A stretch of DNA of 59,358 bases, filler included, from Asterionella formosa (Eukaryota): NCBI GenBank assembly GCA_002256025.1. It is 4 parts of 4 records of this genome, joined end to end, with 100 filler letters (N's around TTAATTAATTAA, not from the genome) between each part and the next. Parts side by side here need not be neighbours in the genome. Positions count along the whole stretch, not along the records: positions 29,743 to 44,500 come from NKIB01005769.1; 3 more parts are not named here. One strand, 5' to 3'. Made by a program: the position numbers and the translations under genes. Below are positions 29,945 through 40,499 of this stretch, one piece after another (positions within the stretch are counted from its first letter, which is position 1; the number at the start of each line of letters is the position of its first letter). Below the pieces are notes generated by a model. The model made no database searches and was not told where the DNA came from. It saw nothing but the letters and a program-made list of their open reading frames with translations.

Positions 29945-30976
29945 TTATTCCTCTTTGTCGAAAACCTTGACATCCCATACCAACCCAGCAATCTCAAGGG
30001 GCTTAATAAATCCCCAATAAGCCACATCCCACCAGCATCGCTTGGCCAAAGTACTATGATCATGATGGTCAGCATGGTTTTCTTCTTGCACAATTGCACC
30101 AAAAAGGGGATAGAGCAGATCAAGGAACCAAAAAGGTGGATAGTACAAATTTGGTTTTGCCCGCGAATTAACTGCCTTGCATTTTTTCGGTAGATTAGGA
30201 GGGTGATTGCATACATTGAACCATAAGGTTATAGTCTGACAAATCCAAGAGGATGTATAGGACACAAACAGGCCTTCACGCCCAAAGACAACATAGGCCA
30301 ATGTCATTTCAATCAAGGAGACTAGAAAAGACCAAGTGTCCAGAATTCTCATGTATTTGTCTTCCATATGCTTGGGTGCGAATTCTTCTTCGACCGTATT
30401 GTGAGTCATGAAAAAGGCAAATGCATTCTCTGTTCCATCGATGCTGCATGAGTGAGGATCGCGAGGACCATCGCAAAACTTATGGTGCATCCGGTGCTGC
30501 GAGGCCCACCAAATTGGTCCTCCCTGACTAGCTGAGGACGCGATAAACCCCATTGCGAAGCGTGTGCAAGGACCGCACTTAAATGCCGCGTGCGCTGAAT
30601 AGCGATGCAAGCATGCCGACATGGGAACCGCAACTTTGTAAATTGCAATCACAAGTACAGCCATTGCCAGGAACAAGTGATGCTTCATTGAGGCAGCGAG
30701 CATCATGGACGTCATGTAAATGGGTACCACAGCAACACAAAAGAGAGTTCGCATTTGAAATACCGTAACAGCGAGAGTAATGTTCACCAAGATCGCAAGA
30801 AGAAAAAGACGAAGAAATTCAGGTTCCAATTTCATGGCGAGAACCACGAGCGGTACGGTGATGTTGATACCCATTCCGACTTCGTTCACGTGCATGCCTC
30901 CGCGGCTGTACCACGGTTTGTTCGGTGCATCATCATCTGGAGAGCTAGACGTAGTCGTGGAGGGTGTTGTTGACAT
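29945..30976 (-). CDS. Membrane fatty-acid desaturase, delta-9-like, no cytochrome b5 domain
   Basis: His boxes HRYSAH, WWASQHRMHHKFCD..DPHS, NVCNH, EENHADHH; several TM helices; intronless. Confidence 0.88.
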   Translation of the reverse strand: MSTTPSTTTSSSPDDDAPNKPWYSRGGMHVNEVGMGINITVPLVVLAMKLEPEFLRLFLLAILVNITLAVTVFQMRTLFCVAVVPIYMTSMMLAASMKHHLFLAMAVLVIAIYKVAVPMSACLHRYSAHAAFKCGPCTRFAMGFIASSASQGGPIWWASQHRMHHKFCDGPRDPHSCSIDGTENAFAFFMTHNTVEEEFAPKHMEDKYMRILDTWSFLVSLIEMTLAYVVFGREGLFVSYTSSWICQTITLWFNVCNHPPNLPKKCKAVNSRAKPNLYYPPFWFLDLLYPLFGAIVQEENHADHHDHSTLAKRCWWDVAYWGFIKPLEIAGLVWDVKVFDKEE

Positions 30977-31620
30977 GGGGCTGTTGCTGAGTACTGATAA
31001 GTATAGATTTGATTTGATTCGATTCCGAGAATCTATCTGATTCTGACTAGACGAATACGCTGAGAAGTGTGCACTTTCGCAAATAACTTGTAACAGGGTC
31101 AGACCAGTTAAGTGACCAATTGATGTAGAATACTGGGCAAGGAAGGCGGCTCGTTAATGCTTTCTTGCAGCTGTAATCGCTTATGTGTCCTCAAGTGCCA
31201 AAGGTTGTTAAGGATGAAATTTGAATTGAGACAGCTGTGGTGAGTTTCGCTCTGGTGCATCCTGGTTCGCTCTCGGTCGTGTGTACTGGTACAAATCCGA
31301 TCCGAAGGAAATGTACGTTAAATTCCTCAGGTCCGGTAATACAATACCAGCACCTGGTACCAGGAGAACCTGTTATTACGCCGTACCTAGCAATGGTAAC
31401 CCGGGAGCAGGTACAACTATTAACAACCTCCATAGTGAGGAAGCCCCTGGTACCAGGTACCTTGTAACTGTTCTGCGTGTACCCCCCCTTCAGTACAGCA
31501 AAGCAAAGTACATGGAGTAAATAGAACAATTAGTGAGGTGTTCGCTCACTATCATTATGCTTAGACTACCGTTACCGGTACTCCTACCAATGACGGATTC
31601 CTCGACGCCTCATCTTTCGT

Positions 31621-31790: not shown

Positions 31791-32308
31791 TTCAATTCCA
31801 AACTTTTAAATTTTTTATTATCAATATACCGGCACTTACCTACTATGCCGTTAAATTGTAATTCACTGATTCCATGTCCACCTCTTTAAATCCAAATCGT
31901 GTTCACACACACCTACCTACCCTTTAAGGTGTTTAATTTGCTTGAAGACGGTTTGTGATGCTGGTTTAGGAATTTTAAGCAAGTTCTATGTGCAATAGAT
32001 GCAGTCATGTGATATAATACCAGTATTTGGCGGCATACACATGATTATCTTGATGACCGACAGACAGGAATGTTCTGCGGCGTATCACAGCCAACCATAA
32101 ATTACTTCCTTCGCCGTCTTTGCAGACTTACTTAAAGCAAACTTACACTACCAGTATGCTCCATCATCATCACGAAAAACCATGATGGGCTTTCTTCGCT
32201 CGGTTTAGGTACCAGGTACCAAGTACAGCAAATGATGATGCAAAAGTAATGCACTCAACTACCGGTACACAACAACAGCAAGTACCGGTACTTCAATACA
32301 AACAAGGA

Positions 32309-33901
32309 ATGGCCACCAAGGAAGAGAAGAGACTCGGAGGAATAGCCTGGGCTGGTTCGCTGGTAGGGTCCAAGAACCCAAATAATCTCGGATATCGATA
32401 CTCGCACGAGCACAAGCGCTACAAGAAGACTGGTGATGATGAGACCAACACGGAGATTCCAAGCAACATGGTGGTTCTCTTGCAGAACCGCGAAGGCGAA
32501 GCGCTTGGGGAACAACTAGATTTGCCAACGAATAGCAGCGTTGATGACCTGAGTGCCCTAGTTCACTCATTGAAGGACGAGAGTGATGACAAAAGAATTC
32601 CTTACTCATTTTATGCCAAAGTTACACGGAACGGAGTTGAAGACGACATTGAAGTTACCACTACGATCCTTGATCTACTGAAAGATAACAACATATCCAC
32701 AGAGCAAGTATTGAAGTTGACTTATCAGCCTCTTGCCGTCTTCAGAGTAAGACCAGTCACCAGATGCACAGATACCATGCCCGGTCACACTGAGGCCATT
32801 CTGCATGTTTCATATTCTCCCGACGGAAGTTATCTTGCCAGTGGAGGAGGAGATACAACTGTTCGTTTCTGGGACGTTAATACATCTCTTCCAAAATTTA
32901 CTTGTGCTGGGCACAAGAATCATGTTCTCTGCACCGCGTGGTCTCCTGATGGAACCAAATTTGTCAGCGGAGACAAAAACGGTGTTATCATCCTTTGGAA
33001 CCCGGTCACGGGAAAGGCTATAGGATCACCAAAAAAGGCACATCCAAAATGGATAACATCCTTTGCCTGGGAACCTCTTCATGCAAACCCTTCGGGAGAA
33101 CGACTCGCCACATCCTCGAAGGATAGCACGGTCAAGATCTGGAATACTCGCACACAAATGGCGCTCGTCACCCTTAGCGGACATCTGGACAGTGTCGAAT
33201 GCGTCAAGTGGGGAGGACAAGGTCTTTTGTATACCGCCAGTCGAGATCGAACCATCAAGGTATGGACTGCCGATGGAGTCGATCTCGGTAAGCTCGTTAG
33301 AACACTCACTGGACATGCCCACCGGATAAATACACTTGCCATTTCCTGTGATTATGTTACAAGAACGGGTCCTTATGATCACAGGGGAAAAGTCTATCAG
33401 CAAATCGAAGACAAACAGGAAGCTGCAAAGCAGAAGTACGAAGACATGATGGGGGGAGAACCGGAACGACTTGTGAGCGGTTCGGATGACTTCACCTTGT
33501 TCTTGTGGCACCCTAAGGTCGACAAGCATCCCGTCAAGCGAATGACAGGTCATCAACAAATTGTGAACCACTTGCAGTTTTCTCCAGATGGAAGATACTT
33601 GGCTTCGGCTAGTTTTGACAAGAAAGTGAAGCTATGGAATGGAAAGTCTGGTGATTTCATAAGTACTATGACGGGTCATGTTGGTGCTGTATATCAAGTG
33701 GCTTGGAGTCCAGATTCAAGATTCTTAGTCAGCGCATCAAAAGATTCAACAGCCAAGCTTTGGGAAATACCCTCAGGAAAACGAGCAAGAGAAACTTTGC
33801 CTGGTCATGCCGATGAAGTGTATGCCTTGGACTGGGCACCAAATGGAGCAAGTCTTGCCACGGGTAGTAAGGATCGAACAATCAAAATTTGGAAGAATTA
33901 G
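32309..33901 (+). CDS. NLE1: Notchless / Rsa4 ribosome-assembly WD40 protein
   Basis: NLE domain ending ISTEQVLKLTYQPLAVFRVRPVTRC, then WD40 repeats (GHTEAIL, ERLVSGSDDFTLFLW, LPGHADEVYALDW). Alternative ATG at 32249. Confidence 0.95.
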   Translation: MATKEEKRLGGIAWAGSLVGSKNPNNLGYRYSHEHKRYKKTGDDETNTEIPSNMVVLLQNREGEALGEQLDLPTNSSVDDLSALVHSLKDESDDKRIPYSFYAKVTRNGVEDDIEVTTTILDLLKDNNISTEQVLKLTYQPLAVFRVRPVTRCTDTMPGHTEAILHVSYSPDGSYLASGGGDTTVRFWDVNTSLPKFTCAGHKNHVLCTAWSPDGTKFVSGDKNGVIILWNPVTGKAIGSPKKAHPKWITSFAWEPLHANPSGERLATSSKDSTVKIWNTRTQMALVTLSGHLDSVECVKWGGQGLLYTASRDRTIKVWTADGVDLGKLVRTLTGHAHRINTLAISCDYVTRTGPYDHRGKVYQQIEDKQEAAKQKYEDMMGGEPERLVSGSDDFTLFLWHPKVDKHPVKRMTGHQQIVNHLQFSPDGRYLASASFDKKVKLWNGKSGDFISTMTGHVGAVYQVAWSPDSRFLVSASKDSTAKLWEIPSGKRARETLPGHADEVYALDWAPNGASLATGSKDRTIKIWKN

Positions 33902-33985
33902 TTGTCCATAGTCTCTGTTCTGTTAAGTTTACAAGCAATCTGAACCTTATGTTAACCCTATATCTTGCTGTCATGTAATTGGCCC

Positions 33986-36900
33986 TTATGAAATGAAACT
34001 GCTTTCACTCAATGATTCGACCGAAACACTACTGTCGTTTTCACCTTCATCGTCTTCAAGCCAATTTGGTAGGGTCAATGTGGTGCCGAGCTCGTGTGCC
34101 CTGAGTAGCATTTGTCTGTGTACCCCCACGAGGGCAGTCCCTGTCTTCCGAGTCCTTCGATGCCACTTGCCGCAGTGATGAACGCTTGCTACAGGCGTCT
34201 TCTTCGGTCGCTTCCCCTTGAAATTCAGAATAAGGGAGCGCACTTGAGAATCTGAAGTAGATGGATCGACAAGTTTGGCGCCCACAATTTTTGGTTTGAT
34301 TTTACCTCGTATTGGAAGATGGACTTGAGTATTCAATAGGTTGTGCTCATCCTCAACCTTGTCATCCATAGACCCTGTCAGGGAATCCACAATTGACTGA
34401 AGATTCTTAGCACGCTCACGAAATTCTGAATCAGCATCTAGTCCATCCTGAACAGTGCTACGGAACCTTTCCTGCAAACGTTGAAACCCTTCTTCTAAAA
34501 GCGAAACCTGTTGCTTTGTTTCAGCATTCTGTTTTGACAACAATCTGTTCACAACGTGAAGCTGTGAAACAAACAAGATAGATGAGAAACCAATTGTTAA
34601 ACGATAAAAAGAGAACAATGCACGTCGACGAACAAACCTCGCGTAGTTTCCAAGCAGCCGCTTTTGCGTTATGCATCAAGCGGTCCCTCTCCTTAGCCAA
34701 TGCAATGGCCTCTTGAGCAAGCTTTTTCCTCTGCAGATCGCCAACACGGTTGCACATGGTATCCATCAAGAGCTTTTGCTCGTTGAGAGATACTTGTAAA
34801 TCAACACATTTGTTGGCCAAATTTTTGAGATCCCTCCGTAGCTCCTGTTCTCGTCTTGTATACCGAGTGTTGGAAGCATGTGGTTCGTACTTTTCCTGAA
34901 TTGTCTCGTCTTTCTTGTTTTGCCAAGGCATTGCTAAACCGAATACTGAGGGGTCACCGCTTTGTGAAGCACCTCCTCCTAGGGTGCTCCGGGAGGCTAT
35001 CGACTGGTCATCAAAGCCACCGGTCCGATGTGGCCTTGCTGTGGCGGCACGTCGTAACCAGCGGTTGCTACCGCCATCATCGATTCCGTCTTCTAATCCG
35101 GCAAGCTCGTCGACTTCTACATCATCCTCTTCAATGGCGGCCCCGGATATTATAAGACCTGCATCTTCAAGGTAGTCGAAGAACTCTCCTTCCACTGTAT
35201 CTAAGTTAACTTCGTCACTTTCGATCAAACCTGCATCAATCATGAGAGAGTCAAGGTCAACCAACCCTGATAAATCAGGTGCACCAGCTATAGTTGAAGT
35301 GATCTCAGGGACAGTGATTGGCCTATCCTTGTCGGTATCCTTTCGTAACTTCCAGCAAAGAGTGCGCATATACCGAAGAAAACATATGGCTTCTCGACAC
35401 CGGTTTTCGACCACAATCAGTTTGTGCTCTAACTCCGAATGCTTGAGTTCTTTCTCGCGATTTTCGGTCTGAGCACGGCAAAGTTCTTCTTCCCTTTTTC
35501 GCTTCTCTTGGACCAAGAGCTCATTCTGTCGACGCAGGACAACCGATTCACTCTGAATATCAGTCAACAGACTTTCAGCACGATCGTGTGCCCTAATAAC
35601 CTCGACTAATTTGTCTGAGGGCATTCGTTTTGCAAGTTCAATAGATAGTGCACGCCACTTGGGAAGATTTTGAAGCTGTCTTTCATCCTCGCCCATTACA
35701 AGAGCCTTTCGGCAGGGATTATGCACAGATTCCTCTTCATCCGCAATCGCTTGGATTTTTCGCCACATCGAAATCGAAACGCTCTGCTTGAAAGTTCCAT
35801 CTCGTTTACTTTCTTGCACTAGGTCTTTCGCAAACTCCTGAACCAAGCTCGAGAGTTCTCCGAATTTGATCTCAGTTTGTAGCAGCCATTTCCGGTAATC
35901 TTCTATTCCAGCATCTTTGTTCATTCTAGGTTTGTTGGTAACACGTCTCACCCGTTGTCCAAGGCGAATGGAGTTGATCGTTTCCGTTATGTTGTAGGAG
36001 CTCGGGGAAGCCGTGATGAAGAAAGTGGTCCTACAATTCCCGCCAAAAGCATCTTTCAAAATGCTCGTTAACTTGGCCTCTCTATAAGGCACGTACGTAT
36101 GTCCTTCCGTCAAGCATTTAATAACGTTTCCAAGTGCAGAGAACGATTTATGTATGATCTTCGTCTCTTGTACACTTTGCACTTTTGCCTTGGAAGCAAC
36201 TTCGAAACCAGCCAACTCAGCAAGCTGAAGGTACGATCGACGGACAGCTCCAGAGCGAATGTGCCGCTGCTCAATATGTAACATGAAGATCGCATGAGAT
36301 CTGTTTGGATCCATGCTTAGATCATTTCCAATTAATTTTCGACAAGCAGTGCCGCGTCGGATCAATTGTATGATGTCATCTTCGTTGAAACAGAACGCTT
36401 CTACCGCTCCTTCCAAGGCGATTCCAGACGTCATATCAGTAACCAGCAATGTTTTGTCTAATTTCGGATCAAGTAGGTCAAATATTTTTTCCAAAAAAAT
36501 TGCAACATATGTGCAGGACAATCGAAATTCAATGTATTCAGGATACTCTTTCATTCCATGAAACAAATCGTTGATCATTCGCGGAAGAATACCAGCATCT
36601 TCTTCTCTTGGCGTTGCAGTAGTTGATATTGAATCCTCGTCACTTGATCCTTCACCACGGTCGTCAGCTAGCTCAGGCAACTTCCCTGTCAAGGTATGTG
36701 TCTTACCGCTACCACTCAATCCATATGCCAACACAGAACAATTGATTCCTTGAAGGAGACTGTCAACAAGCGAGGAACCTACTGTTTCATACACATCCTG
36801 TTGCGAAGAATCAACATTGAATACGTGATCAAAACTGAAGTCGTATTCGCCATCGAGTGGCGAATCAACAGTAAACTGCCCATCCCCTTCATGAGCTTCA

Positions 36901-39824
36901 ATGCAACTACGACTCCGCCGGTTCCTTTCGAGTTTGGTCATTGGCCGGAGACGAAGGCAAACCTTTATTGGATCCTGGTCAATTTCTTCCGCTGGTTCCT
37001 CCCAAGGATCGTTTTCTCCTTTGATGATGTCAACATCAAAATTCCTTCCAATCATACTCGTCATGGCACTTTCACTCATTTCAGTCGTCACAGAGGTTGT
37101 ACTTGTTCTTCGAGGCTTGCTTGAATCACTTGTTTTAGCGATATCAGTAACGGAGGCTGCAGCAGCAATTTTGCTTCGTAGTTCAAGAATTTCAATCTCA
37201 GCTTTCGCAAGATCTTCATCACGATCCACCGATTCTCGAGCAAGTCTTTCATTTTCCTGCTTCAACGCTTCCATTTCCTCTAGGAGTCGATCGATTTCAA
37301 TCTCATCTGTCGTCCGGCTTCGCTGGTCATGGTCCGGCCCTGTCAAAATTCCCATTTTTTGAAATTGTCCTGTAGACACCACTTCGGTCTTTTTATCAAT
37401 ATTATTATCCATGGGTCTGCCATTTCCCATACTACCAGGATCTGAATGCTTTTCTAAATGGGCATTCAGTGAGCTCCACTTCTTCTTGCTTTGTTGTCCA
37501 TTCTCCGGAAGGCCATGATCTGAGATGCTAGCTGATGGGAGTTCTTCGGCCTCTTTCTGCGCTGCCAATAGCGACAAATGACCATCGCATTTCGTAATAT
37601 TCAATTCCCTAGTAACAGCGTTAAGCTCCCTTTTCATTTCCTCTTCAGTTATGGACTTTTGCCCTGTTGCATGAAGTTCTTCGTCTGTCACATCCAATGC
37701 GGTCTTCATTTTATCGGAAGCACTAACCAGTAACGTTGAAAGTTGGGCTAAATCCTTGTCAGTGTCGTGATCATCATTTCTTGAAACCATTTTTCCTTTG
37801 AAATTATTAAGCAGCTCACCAGTGTCATCATGTTCTGTGTATGAAGGTCGGATGTTTGTCCCCGACCCAGTATCTGTCATCCCGTCAAAAGTTTGATTTA
37901 CGTACTGAAATGTAGATGCCACCGTTTCTGAGACATGACAGGACGATAATGGAACGCTTCCCCCTTCGGACAATTTTCGCTGTCTATGTCCCTCCAGATT
38001 TTCCTTTGGCAATGGATTATTTCTTCTTAAGCCCTCTATTGCTTGTCCTACAAGGTCCGCTTCCTCAACCGTTTCTGATATCAGCGGCACTTCGAATCCT
38101 GGAATCGCTGAAAAACCAATTCCCTCGTTGTGCGCGTCCATCAGGACAACATTACTGCAGGCATTGTTTTCTGTTGATTTTCCCAACAGATTTTCTTTAA
38201 AATCATGAATCCCACTTTTACTACCACCAGATATCTGCGGAGTTTTTTCAGATTCTATGGATTTCTCAGTCACCGGAGATCTTGACCCCGGAGTGAATGA
38301 CGAGCCCCTTCTCCTTCCCACCCCACTCGTGGTATCGCGACTACTGTCATCTTTGCTTTCCATACGCTGTCCTGATACGTAAGTTCCAAACCGAATAGCA
38401 GATAAAGTTTCGTTTACATGCCGAGAGAGTGGATTTGCGGTGACTATCACGGATACTCCAGCCGCTCGTCCTAGGGCTACTTGTAACAATCTGGTTAGTG
38501 CTGACTCTGCATAGGGTGGAGAGGACGATCGGTCATTCAGTGCAAGAGCCCTTAAGCACTTCCTCAATGCCCCCAGTGATCGTCTGACTGCCTTGGATTC
38601 ATTTATTAATAAACTATCAGCGTCCGAAGGAGGCCGATGAACCAACGACGAATTTGCTAAATCCACCAAGAATAAGGACGACGTCGTTCGTTTTCCTCGT
38701 GACCGGCTATATCTTTCCAACTTCAAAACAACCACAGAGTGAGAACGTGAGCTGTGGGAGTGTTTTCTTTCTAGGCGCTCAGCTCGATTTGACATTCCAG
38801 TCTGGAAATAGTCTATGACTTCCGATTCTTTATTGCACATCTTTTCCACTATTTGGTCAACAGCGAGTTCCTGATCACCACCGACATCGTCCACAGCCTG
38901 TCCCAACAGATCAATTACGTGCTCATTTGCTACTTCAAGGAATGAAAATCGAATGCTAGGCTCTTCCTTTTTGTTCAGCGCGTTCAAGGTTTTCCTAATC
39001 CTTCTGATTCTTTCAAATACATCCTGAACAACTCGGTGAGTGATGCCGGCATTTTCGTCCAATTCAAATAAGGGACCCACTTCCACTGCAGCTGGCGCGT
39101 ATGTGCCAGAAGAAAACGCCTTGTGTCGGCCTTTGGCAGTTATGACTTGACCGGGAAGTTGAGTTGCAGCGACATCGCGATTGCCTCCATCCCCTTTATA
39201 TCGACTGACCCCGGAACTACCAATAGAGCTCATGTCATCATCGTTATCGACATCTTCTTCCTCTTTCGTCGACGGCCCATTCATAGTAAACGACTTCCCG
39301 CTTCCTTGCTCTCCGTACGCGAGGATACAACAATTCCTCCCAGACAAAAAATCAGATACCAGAGCAGCCACTGACTCCTTGTAGACGCTGGTTTGTGGTG
39401 ATTTATCGTCAAAAACCTAAGCATACGCACAGACAGTTAGTGCAATGATTACATGCAGTACGAGATGAAAGATAATAGGTGAAACAAACCAAACTGGAGC
39501 CAAAAGGAGCGGTCAAACGTCCACCATGGTCATCGTGACCCTTCCAGCGTGTCCACAAATGACGCAGGATGCTTTGGATTGAATAAAAATGGTACACTCA
39601 AAGGCGCAGGGGCAATAATGGGTGTCCGATTCGACCGACATTATTCCAAATATTTATGTACGCACCCTATCGAAATTGAAATGTTTGGTGGCCCCTTCAT
39701 TTCTGACTGAAACTCTTGCTTTGTCTTGATTGACCTTAACACATCCGTATCGTTCTTCCTTCTGTTCCTCATTGTTCATAGGGCGAAGCCGAAACGTCAC
39801 CCGCACATTGTTTGTTTTCAACAT
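33986..39824 (-). CDS. Kinesin-1-like protein with two motor domains, ~1,837 aa; exons 39824-39666, 39416-34638, 34561-33986
   Basis: Motor 1: VRVTFRLRP, AYGEQGSGKS, SSRSH, LVDLANSS. Motor 2: IKVCLRLRP, AYGLSGSGKTHT, NRSHAIF, ELAGFE, VPYREAKLT..L..AFGGN. Coiled-coil stalk; tail LPIRG. Two phase-0 GT-AG introns join in frame. Confidence 0.88.
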
Positions 39825-40499
39825 CGTGTGGGGATTCTTGCATTATGTACAGTAGTAGATTTGCTTAATTTCTTCTTCCATCGAGAGTTGGTCTTTTATC
39901 AATACATTTAGCGGTATATACCGGTATTACGGGCGGAATATAATTTTTACATATTATGTTCCGTTAAAAACGCCTCGGTCTATGCAGTCTACCAGTACCA
40001 GGTACCAGGTACTCCGTACAAGCTGGTAGTACCTGGAGAAGGTCTGGTAAAACACTTTTTTACTTACAAAAATGTTCAGCTAAATATCTCGATTACCGGA
40101 CCTTCGCGTAACGGTAGCTACCGGTAGTCGTGTACCTGTTGTAAATGTCCCTGTATGTTATTTCTACGAAGAACTTTCAGTCCTACGAGTCGTATCCAGT
40201 CAAACTACCGGTAGTATGCATAAAATGAAGGGTTCTGCGTGCGAACACACATTTTGCCTCATGGAAGTCACAGTCAGTTGCACTTTAGCTACTGCTGAAC
40301 GAAACCATGCAAATTTTAACCCAAGACTTGATGTGCATGACAAAATACACAACATGGGCAGCAGATGTACAAGCTGGATTTAAATGCCCTGGCAGTTCCT
40401 ACACATTTTGCATTATTGTATGCAAAAACTTCGTTTCCTCCCAATTTTGAAGATGCTGATTCTAGACCTCTAAGATGAACCAGCTCCTGTTTTATCCAG

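Follow-up and report, generated by a model that had tools for sequence, protein, structure and literature searches.

A single diatom kinesin chain with two motor heads, one of them predicted to be ATP-dead

In kinesins, one motor per chain is generally assumed, and two-headedness is reached by dimerisation. A gene of the diatom Asterionella formosa raises the question of whether a single chain can carry two motors and, if so, what the additional head would be for. The gene lies on the minus strand of the window, meaning here the whole stretch of DNA that was analysed (59,358 nucleotides including filler, from assembly GCA_002256025.1), within the part taken from NKIB01005769.1. An initial annotation had described it as a single-chain kinesin with two non-canonical motors that was not an artefact of splice prediction, and the motifs and coordinates quoted there all hold; the two-motor finding goes well beyond chance. 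One gene encodes a single kinesin chain with two motor heads. We propose, with moderate confidence, that this expressed kinesin combines a plus-end motor (head 2) with a tethered, ATP-dead anchoring head (head 1), and that it acts as a cross-linker, slider or tether. The gene model comprises the following parts (nt, nucleotides; aa, amino acids).

33986..39824, minus strand: tandem-motor kinesin gene, entire coding span; 3 exons, product of 1837 aa
39666..39824, minus strand: exon 1; ATG at 39824, codes for the first 53 aa (head 1) and holds RLRP (39771-39791)
39417..39665, minus strand: intron 1; 249 nt, GT..AG; joint present in RNA contigs of runs X1, X5 and X7
34638..39416, minus strand: exon 2; 4779 nt, 1593 aa, with the remainder of head 1, the linker, head 2 and the bulk of the stalk
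34562..34637, minus strand: intron 2; 76 nt, GT..AG; joint present in RNA contigs of X1 and X5
33986..34561, minus strand: exon 3; stalk end and tail, 191 aa, then TAA; no further joint in X1 record 2 or X5 record 8

Minus-strand positions 34521-39416 form a single open frame of 1631 codons, and an in-frame stop is found 7 codons upstream of the ATG. The motor profile PF00225 matches the kinesin frame twice, as the initial annotation had anticipated for one protein with two motors: at 195.2 bits (E 1.9e-57) in the exon-2 portion of head 1, in two stretches parted by an insertion, and at 259.3 bits (E 6e-77) in head 2, over profile positions 2-327 of 327, the Pfam cut-off being 29.3. The model agrees with the database protein P0002, also of 1837 aa, which matches the spliced product at 99.8-100% across the four pieces compared. 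The 90% cluster of P0002 contains three members of 1837 aa, on contigs of ~7.2-7.5 kb, and also pieces of 1616 aa and 188-196 aa on contigs of 13-17 kb, which are expected when genes are called on unspliced genomic DNA.

Further evidence comes from Logan contigs of poly-A RNA libraries. The kinesin stretch was found, whole or in part, in 11 RNA runs from 9 studies, 4 of these runs being compared with the gene in detail. A contig of 6163 nt from a poly-A metatranscriptome (X1 record 2) joins 33179-34561 to 34638-39417 with intron 2 removed, and covers exon 2 free of gaps. Another of 4737 nt from a separate poly-A study (X5 record 9) joins 34947-39414 to 39664-39932 with intron 1 removed, a joint that is shared by a contig of X7. 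Each of these two contigs runs from head 1 across the linker into head 2, and the absence of introns from them indicates that they derive from RNA and not from contaminating DNA. It is thereby shown that both heads are encoded on one spliced mRNA, and the view of a single chain with two motors, advanced from the genomic sequence, is borne out at the level of the transcript.

The two heads differ in how much of the catalytic machinery they have kept. The second one is laid out as follows.

35940..36953, minus strand: head 2, aa 875-1212; kinesin-1-like motor, probably active
36699-36722, minus strand: P-loop of head 2, GLSGSGKT
36294-36308, minus strand: switch I of head 2, PNRSH, where kinesin-1 has SSRSH; Arg, Ser and His retained
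36201-36218, minus strand: switch II of head 2, ELAGFE; Asp231 to Glu and Ser235 to Phe, with Gly234 and Glu236 retained
35880..35942, minus strand: neck linker and neck start behind head 2 (VTNKPRMNKDAGIEDYRKWLL), aligned to kinesin-1 IKNTVSVNVELTAEQWKK

The strongest solved match of head 2 is kinesin-1, at 209.8 bits, with the runner-up family at 166.9. This agrees with the kinesin-1 likeness attributed to this motor from the start, and the alignment of head 2 to KIF5B extends through the neck linker up to the neck Trp. Mapped to KIF5B, it retains K91/T92, R203, S204, H205, G234 and E236. The switch I Arg is present in 15 of the 16 family rows; 12 of them carry ELAGFE, and the other four read ELAGFD (Odontella), DLAGSE (P0126), DLAAFE (P0269) and QLACFE (P0270). 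The initial annotation had regarded this motor as altered in the sense of defective, a view that we do not share: ELAGFE is typical of the clade and the key hydrolysis residues are kept, so that head 2 is probably not defective. In the A. formosa clade, head 2 has the look of a plus-end motor that is uncommon in its details but works. The GFE ending of its switch II resembles the myosin form (DIxGFE), as opposed to the GSE of kinesins. In ELAGFE a Glu replaces the Mg-coordinating Asp, and an active head 2 would provide a natural test of how much change the kinesin active site tolerates.

Head 1 has followed a different course.

38367..39824, minus strand: head 1, aa 1-403, interrupted by intron 1; kinesin fold, predicted ATP-dead
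39291-39314, minus strand: P-loop of head 1, GEQGSGKS
39051..39278, minus strand: acidic, Ser-rich insertion of head 1 (~75 aa) at the loop L5 site after the P-loop; splits the Pfam match
38739-38753, minus strand: switch I of head 1, SSRSH
38646-38663, minus strand: switch II of head 1, DLANSS versus DLAGSE of kinesin-1; Gly234 to Asn and Glu236 to Ser
38544..38597, minus strand: helix alpha4 of head 1 (SKAVRRSLGALRKCLRAL), among the best-conserved head 1 blocks

Its kinesin fold is well supported. Kinesin-1 is the best match among solved chains (108.6 bits, with Kar3 at about 100), and the AlphaFold2 model of the exon-2 part (predicted local distance difference test score, pLDDT, of 76.9; predicted template modelling score of 0.74) retrieves kinesin-1 motor domains at the top of a Foldseek search (5lt1_A, E 7.8e-21, target template modelling score 0.73). 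In this model the insertion (exon-2 residues 65-106, pLDDT <50) and everything after alpha6 are disordered, and past alpha6 there is no neck-linker-like sequence. When head 1 is mapped on human KIF5B and on Neurospora kinesin, the P-loop and SSRSH are retained, N198 is replaced by His, and L11 and alpha4 have gained basic residues. Across the family, where not every row is a separate species, the switch II Gly is absent from 14 of 15 rows (DLANS-type in 12, [DV]LADSE in 2), Odontella alone keeping it (DLAGHQ), and the Glu is lost in 13 of 15 and present in 2, which supports the early view of this head as a pseudo-motor. The P-loop, on the other hand, conforms to GxxGSGK[ST] in all 7 rows that cover the site, and RxRP is kept in all 5 rows with an N-terminus. 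The best-kept blocks include L11, alpha4, beta1/RxRP, the P-loop region and alpha6; a DDD.SS.GS.GVS block of the insertion is also conserved.

Such a combination, in which the switch II Gly and Glu are lost while the nucleotide-binding parts are kept, is that expected of a natural rigor-like head. In kinesin-1, the mutations G234A and E236A are placed in the 'rigor' class that remains on microtubules (PMC2172855), and E236A is described as nearly abolishing hydrolysis and trapping the head in a microtubule-bound state (PMC12005725). Given these mutants, together with the switch II losses and the kept P-loop, the most fitting reading of head 1 is nucleotide binding without hydrolysis, and by analogy with them it would also bind microtubules. 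What does not survive is the proposal that the two heads are defective in complementary switches: head 2 is altered in switch II too (Asp to Glu, Ser to Phe), and the intact SSRSH of head 1 is peculiar to A. formosa, the switch I Arg being present in 4 of 11 rows and lost in the other 7.

How widespread is this arrangement? In the first protein search, 7993 candidates were scored and 87 of them passed at E <= 0.001; 11 reached more than 960 bits, and the next best only 178. Both heads are present in four complete proteins, P0002, P0003, P0005 (Fragilaria crotonensis) and P0006; P0004 is N-truncated and retains only the final 28 residues of head 1, and six proteins (P0007-P0012) consist of head 2 and tail only. 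Later searches added the two-headed P0109 (1733 aa) and P0121 (1677 aa, from the MMETSP transcriptome of Odontella aurita), the N-truncated relative P0126, and nine clusters of head-1 fragments. The two-head layout is shown to be kept in pennate diatoms and in one centric diatom, and two-headed relatives, the search for which had been suggested as a check on the gene, do exist in other diatoms, including F. crotonensis and O. aurita. Identity to the relatives amounts to 41-64% in head 1, 27-49% in the linker and 68-85% in head 2.

The 'single-head' relatives are, from their sequences, probably for the most part pieces of split gene calls. In a quick tree, the two-headed P0005 nests within the 'single-head' clade as sister to P0011 with a support of 100, from which it follows that those forms are probably split calls, and some of their N-termini resemble, to the eye, intron read-through. 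Moreover, three 'single-head' proteins have a head-1 fragment from the same source on a contig of the same size: P0008 and P0119 (JGI, 17599 nt), P0270 and P0127 (JGI, 8092 nt), and P0267 and P0334 (ENA, 16015 nt). Metagenome contigs scanned with the alignment of the family, and again with P0008 as query, gave no confirmed locus. P0269, an MMETSP protein marked as complete, has 287 N-terminal residues and no head 1, pointing to loss of head 1 or to a paralogue in at least one lineage. As for P0127, which apparently shares its contig with P0270, it retains the switch II Glu of head 1.

Between and behind the heads lie regions of very different conservation.

36954..38366, minus strand: linker, aa 404-874; mainly low-complexity, weakly conserved
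37164..37298, minus strand: heptad-like conserved stretch of the linker, aa 760-804; by eye, likely to form a short coiled coil
36996..37013, minus strand: acidic D-x-W-x-E motif directly before head 2; conserved
33989..35939, minus strand: stalk and tail, aa 1213-1837, interrupted by intron 2; helical in the model
34304-34318, minus strand: tail motif LPIRG

In the motif that precedes head 2, D856, W858 and E860 are unchanged in 11 rows. At the Pfam cut-off, no family was found in a 417-aa piece of the linker or in a 403-aa piece of the stalk. AlphaFold2 models the stalk as a 95-residue helix (78-172, pLDDT 84-95), followed by disorder (241-326) and further helices. The tail had been taken as kinesin-1-like along with motor 2, and beyond a short LP[IL]RG motif this part of the claim is not supported: the exon-3 tail, searched against solved chains, matched none of them (best E 0.63), and no known cargo domain was found by Pfam in the stalk and tail or by the solved-chain search of the exon-3 tail. 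The motif itself is constant, with LP[IL]RG[KR] wherever the aligned rows extend that far (8 of 8), and it may resemble the autoinhibitory (IAK-type) tail motif of kinesin-1.

The origin of the two heads was approached with a FastTree phylogeny of 100 motor domains over 334 columns, with insertion columns trimmed and SH-like support. The tree was built without a named kinesin-1, P0190 being labelled afterwards through a search against solved structures. Head 1 and head 2 rows together form a single clade (support 0.977), whose neighbour is P0208 (0.846), a protein that among solved chains matches kinesin-1 best; the deeper nodes beside it have a support of 0.27, and named members of kinesin-3, -4, -5, -7, -12 and -14 fall elsewhere. 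An acidic, Ser-rich insertion occupies the same site after the P-loop in each of the two heads, and head-to-head identity is highest in Odontella (34%), compared with 24-29% in pennate diatoms. Altogether, the joint clade, the shared insertion site and the higher identity in Odontella argue for an internal duplication. The two heads would then probably have arisen by duplication of a motor within an ancestral diatom kinesin-1-like gene, and the data favour a duplication early in diatoms that was followed by decay of the catalytic site in head 1.

From these features we infer an anchoring or cross-linking role along the following lines. The head 2 domains of two chains would pair through the stalk to form a plus-end-directed motor. 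In each chain, head 1 would hang on a flexible tether of ~470 residues with nucleotide bound and no hydrolysis, and for this reason could grip a microtubule statically, as a natural 'rigor' head. If it does so, the four-headed dimer would be able to cross-link and slide microtubules, or else to stay tethered to its own track. A wider version of the proposal, which we put forward only tentatively, sees here an old, lineage-wide class of four-headed diatom kinesins, in which the dead head would serve the molecule as its own rigor anchor on one microtubule while the walking head moves along a second one.

Several observations weigh against the readings given so far, from the transcript to the function. 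Transcript starts are invisible in the contigs, and an extra, shorter isoform with head 2 only may coexist with the long one. The pairing of 'single-head' proteins with head-1 fragments has equal contig sizes as its sole basis. In the tree, support within the clade of the two heads is low (0.65) and Odontella head 1 stands apart from the other head 1 rows; on account of this low support, long-branch attraction stays a real alternative, and it may explain why head 1 and head 2 group together. Head 2 is unusual with respect to KIF5B at five positions (N198S, S201P, S202N, D231E and S235F). Moreover, in the divergent P0269 and P0270 the head 2 switch II forms DLAAFE and QLACFE come with P-loops GRS and GKA, and all these changes look inactivating; activity of head 2 is therefore not guaranteed family-wide and may be missing from a few divergent relatives. 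Finally, head 1 has S, A and A at the L12/alpha5 positions Y274, R278 and K281 of kinesin-1, residues that we take to be microtubule contacts, so that its binding to microtubules may be weak or different.

The rival explanations differ in how much of the proposal they would remove. The most radical one, that the locus holds two genes or a mis-join, or that its main product starts between the heads, would accommodate the six relatives called as head 2 and tail alone and the blindness of RNA contigs to transcript starts. We regard it as highly improbable, however, since both heads lie within a single open exon of 4779 nt, spliced RNA contigs from two studies bridge them, the identical layout recurs in the Odontella transcript and in the Fragilaria gene model, and head-1 fragments lie on contigs that match those of the 'single-head' calls in source and size. 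Little more credit is due to the idea that head 1 is a decaying relic of the duplication with no function of its own. Head 1 does evolve faster (41-64% identity against 68-85% for head 2) and its catalytic residues drift among lineages, but it has stayed open and recognisable from pennate diatoms through Odontella and is better conserved than the linker, and the P-loop (7 of 7 rows) and the DLANS-type switch II (12 of 15) speak for a fixed derived state and not for random decay.

Two further alternatives give head 1 a function other than anchoring. It could be an internal regulator that docks on head 2 or on the tail, either for autoinhibition or to partner head 2 much as Vik1 partners Kar3; an intramolecular analogue of Kar3-Vik1 had been suggested in the initial annotation. 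Of four features that define Kar3-Vik1, three differ here; contact between the heads obtained a weak computed pass. The predicted complex of head 2 with head 1 scored 0.44 against 0.01 for the best of 3 controls, the runs agreeing in at least 77% of contacts with a partner pLDDT of at least 56. In calibration, 51 of 78 solved complexes attain the mark for such scores, as do 2 of 108 mismatched pairs, but the range up to 0.60 holds only 5 of the 78 solved complexes and all 4 passing mismatches (of 180). Pairs of kinesin heads have been solved, so the pass may be the model's memory of them, and passes of this kind are more often wrong than right. The conserved LP[IL]RG motif, which may be reminiscent of the kinesin-1 autoinhibitory motif, also speaks for regulation. 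Against it, head 2 owns a neck linker and a stalk through which it could pair with another head 2, the two heads are ~470 residues apart with no joint coiled coil, and head 1 retains a P-loop, unlike Vik1; on balance this explanation seems unlikely to us. A slightly weaker candidate still would have the head 1 fold serve a target other than the microtubule lattice; free tubulin, some different filament or an adaptor for cargo are examples. The protein would in that case be a normal transport motor whose N-terminal domain, for cargo or regulation, is odd. It would fit the missing counterparts of Y274, R278 and K281, the lack of a neck-linker-like stretch in a disordered region after alpha6, and the long conserved acidic, Ser-rich loop, which could serve docking or phosphorylation, yet alpha4 and L11, the core of the kinesin interface with microtubules, rank with the most conserved parts of head 1 and have become more basic. 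A plus-end motor with an anchoring head 1 is the reading that we retain.

The surroundings of the gene deserve a brief description. On the plus strand, a WD40-repeat gene (32186-33901; PF00400, E 1.3e-76, 7 stretches) is convergent with the kinesin gene, with only 85 nt from stop to stop; RNA contigs cross both genes, which indicates that their 3' ends probably overlap. The 5' leader of the kinesin (39825-39900, minus strand) contains two upstream ATGs with short frames, one of which overlaps the main start out of frame. Further upstream, at ~39995-40105, RNA contigs of X1, X5 and X8 break at 40012 and continue into differing loose sequence, and X5 record 10 touches only 39995-40012 and 40078-40105; the break could reflect a repeat, the boundary of a transcript or a splice site in the 5' untranslated region. 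At 29945-31153 (minus strand), an open frame of 402 aa shows a weak match to fatty-acid desaturases (PF00487, 23.4 bits, below the cut-off of 29.7).

Two heads in one chain, supported by transcripts and found diatom-wide, depart from the view of one motor per chain, and if the interpretation is right this would be the first natural tandem-motor kinesin proven on a single transcript. It would also represent a new solution for the sliding or bundling of microtubules in the ordered diatom spindle or in the microtubule arrays of valve formation, and diatom cell biology gains a concrete candidate for microtubule cross-linking or sliding. To our knowledge, non-hydrolysing kinesin heads have so far been studied mostly through the engineered G234A and E236A mutants and through Vik1 and Cik1 of yeast. 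A head fixed in a 'dead' state through long evolution offers a natural experiment on the uses of such heads.

The novelty supposed in the initial annotation stands as far as titles and abstract openings go, no natural tandem-motor kinesin having been found in the literature at that level. In the accessible part of the kinesin survey PMC1434745 the expression 'two motor' has 0 occurrences. In PMC2867816, 'multiple motor' is absent from the text, as distinct from the domain-architecture supplements (PDF and XLS), which might list two-motor forms; two of its supplementary alignments contain 0 instances of ELAGFE, DLANSA, DLANSS or DLANSG, which gaps or line breaks could hide. The term 'tandem kinesin' appears 54 times in bioRxiv 10.1101/2025.06.11.659012, the abstract of which opens on the stepping of dimeric kinesin-1. 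The diatom spindle kinesin DSK1 was set aside as a relative, being an 80-kD central-motor kinesin by the description in its abstract alone (PMC2120814).

Other predicted proteins with two motors do exist. Among 44 of the 150 best representatives we found five, P0117 (Paulinella micropora), P0123 (Cordylochernes scorpioides, 'KIF4A'), P0125 (Achlya hypogyna, 'KIF15-A-like'), P0129 and P0145, all unrelated to the diatom family; they could be genuine tandem-motor proteins or else the result of fused gene models. All of them have SSRSH and DLAGSE, with GQTGSGKT in 8 of the 10 heads and GQTGAGKT and GETGSGKT in the rest. Moreover, in four of the five the heads are 56-99.7% identical, as expected of recent tandem copies or fused gene models, whereas the diatom heads share 24-34% and one of them is degenerate. 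Several repeated partial motors were seen in P0122 and P0135.

The diatom protein belongs to the kinesin superfamily and, as we read it, would work most like kinesin-1. With kinesin-1 it shares the best solved match of both heads, as well as a neck linker with Trp after head 2 that leads into a long helix. It differs in carrying two motors, with the presumed working one internal (aa 875-1212) and not N-terminal, in a stalk and tail without a Pfam family and an exon-3 tail unlike those of solved kinesin-1, and in the non-canonical switch motifs of both heads: in place of the canonical GQTxxGKT/S, SSRSH and DLAGSE we find GEQGSGKS, SSRSH and DLANSS in head 1, and GLSGSGKT, PNRSH and ELAGFE in head 2. 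Two short models of Thalassiosira pseudonana were placed in family 1 by Richardson et al. 2006 (PMC1434745, Table 7).

Kar3-Vik1 and Kar3-Cik1 also combine a working kinesin head with a head of kinesin fold, which in the diatom protein is predicted to be non-hydrolysing. Vik1, however, is a non-catalytic head that lacks a nucleotide-binding P-loop, whereas the dead head of diatoms retains it (7 of 7 rows). Moreover, the diatom heads share one chain, 471 residues apart and without a shared coiled-coil end, and the presumed active one is of kinesin-1 type with a C-terminal neck linker, Kar3 being a kinesin-14. Closer in terms of the active site are the engineered rigor forms of kinesin-1 (G234A, E236A and the heterodimer of E236A with wild type), since head 1 is altered at both positions; those forms are single substitutions, whereas head 1 has in addition changed L12/alpha5, a long insertion and no neck linker. 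Finally, KIF7 is described in its abstract as binding microtubules yet being immotile, and immotile kinesins of this type resemble the diatom protein in having a head retained for static binding instead of movement; they differ from it in bearing one head per chain, whereas in diatoms the predicted static head shares its polypeptide with a head that is probably active.

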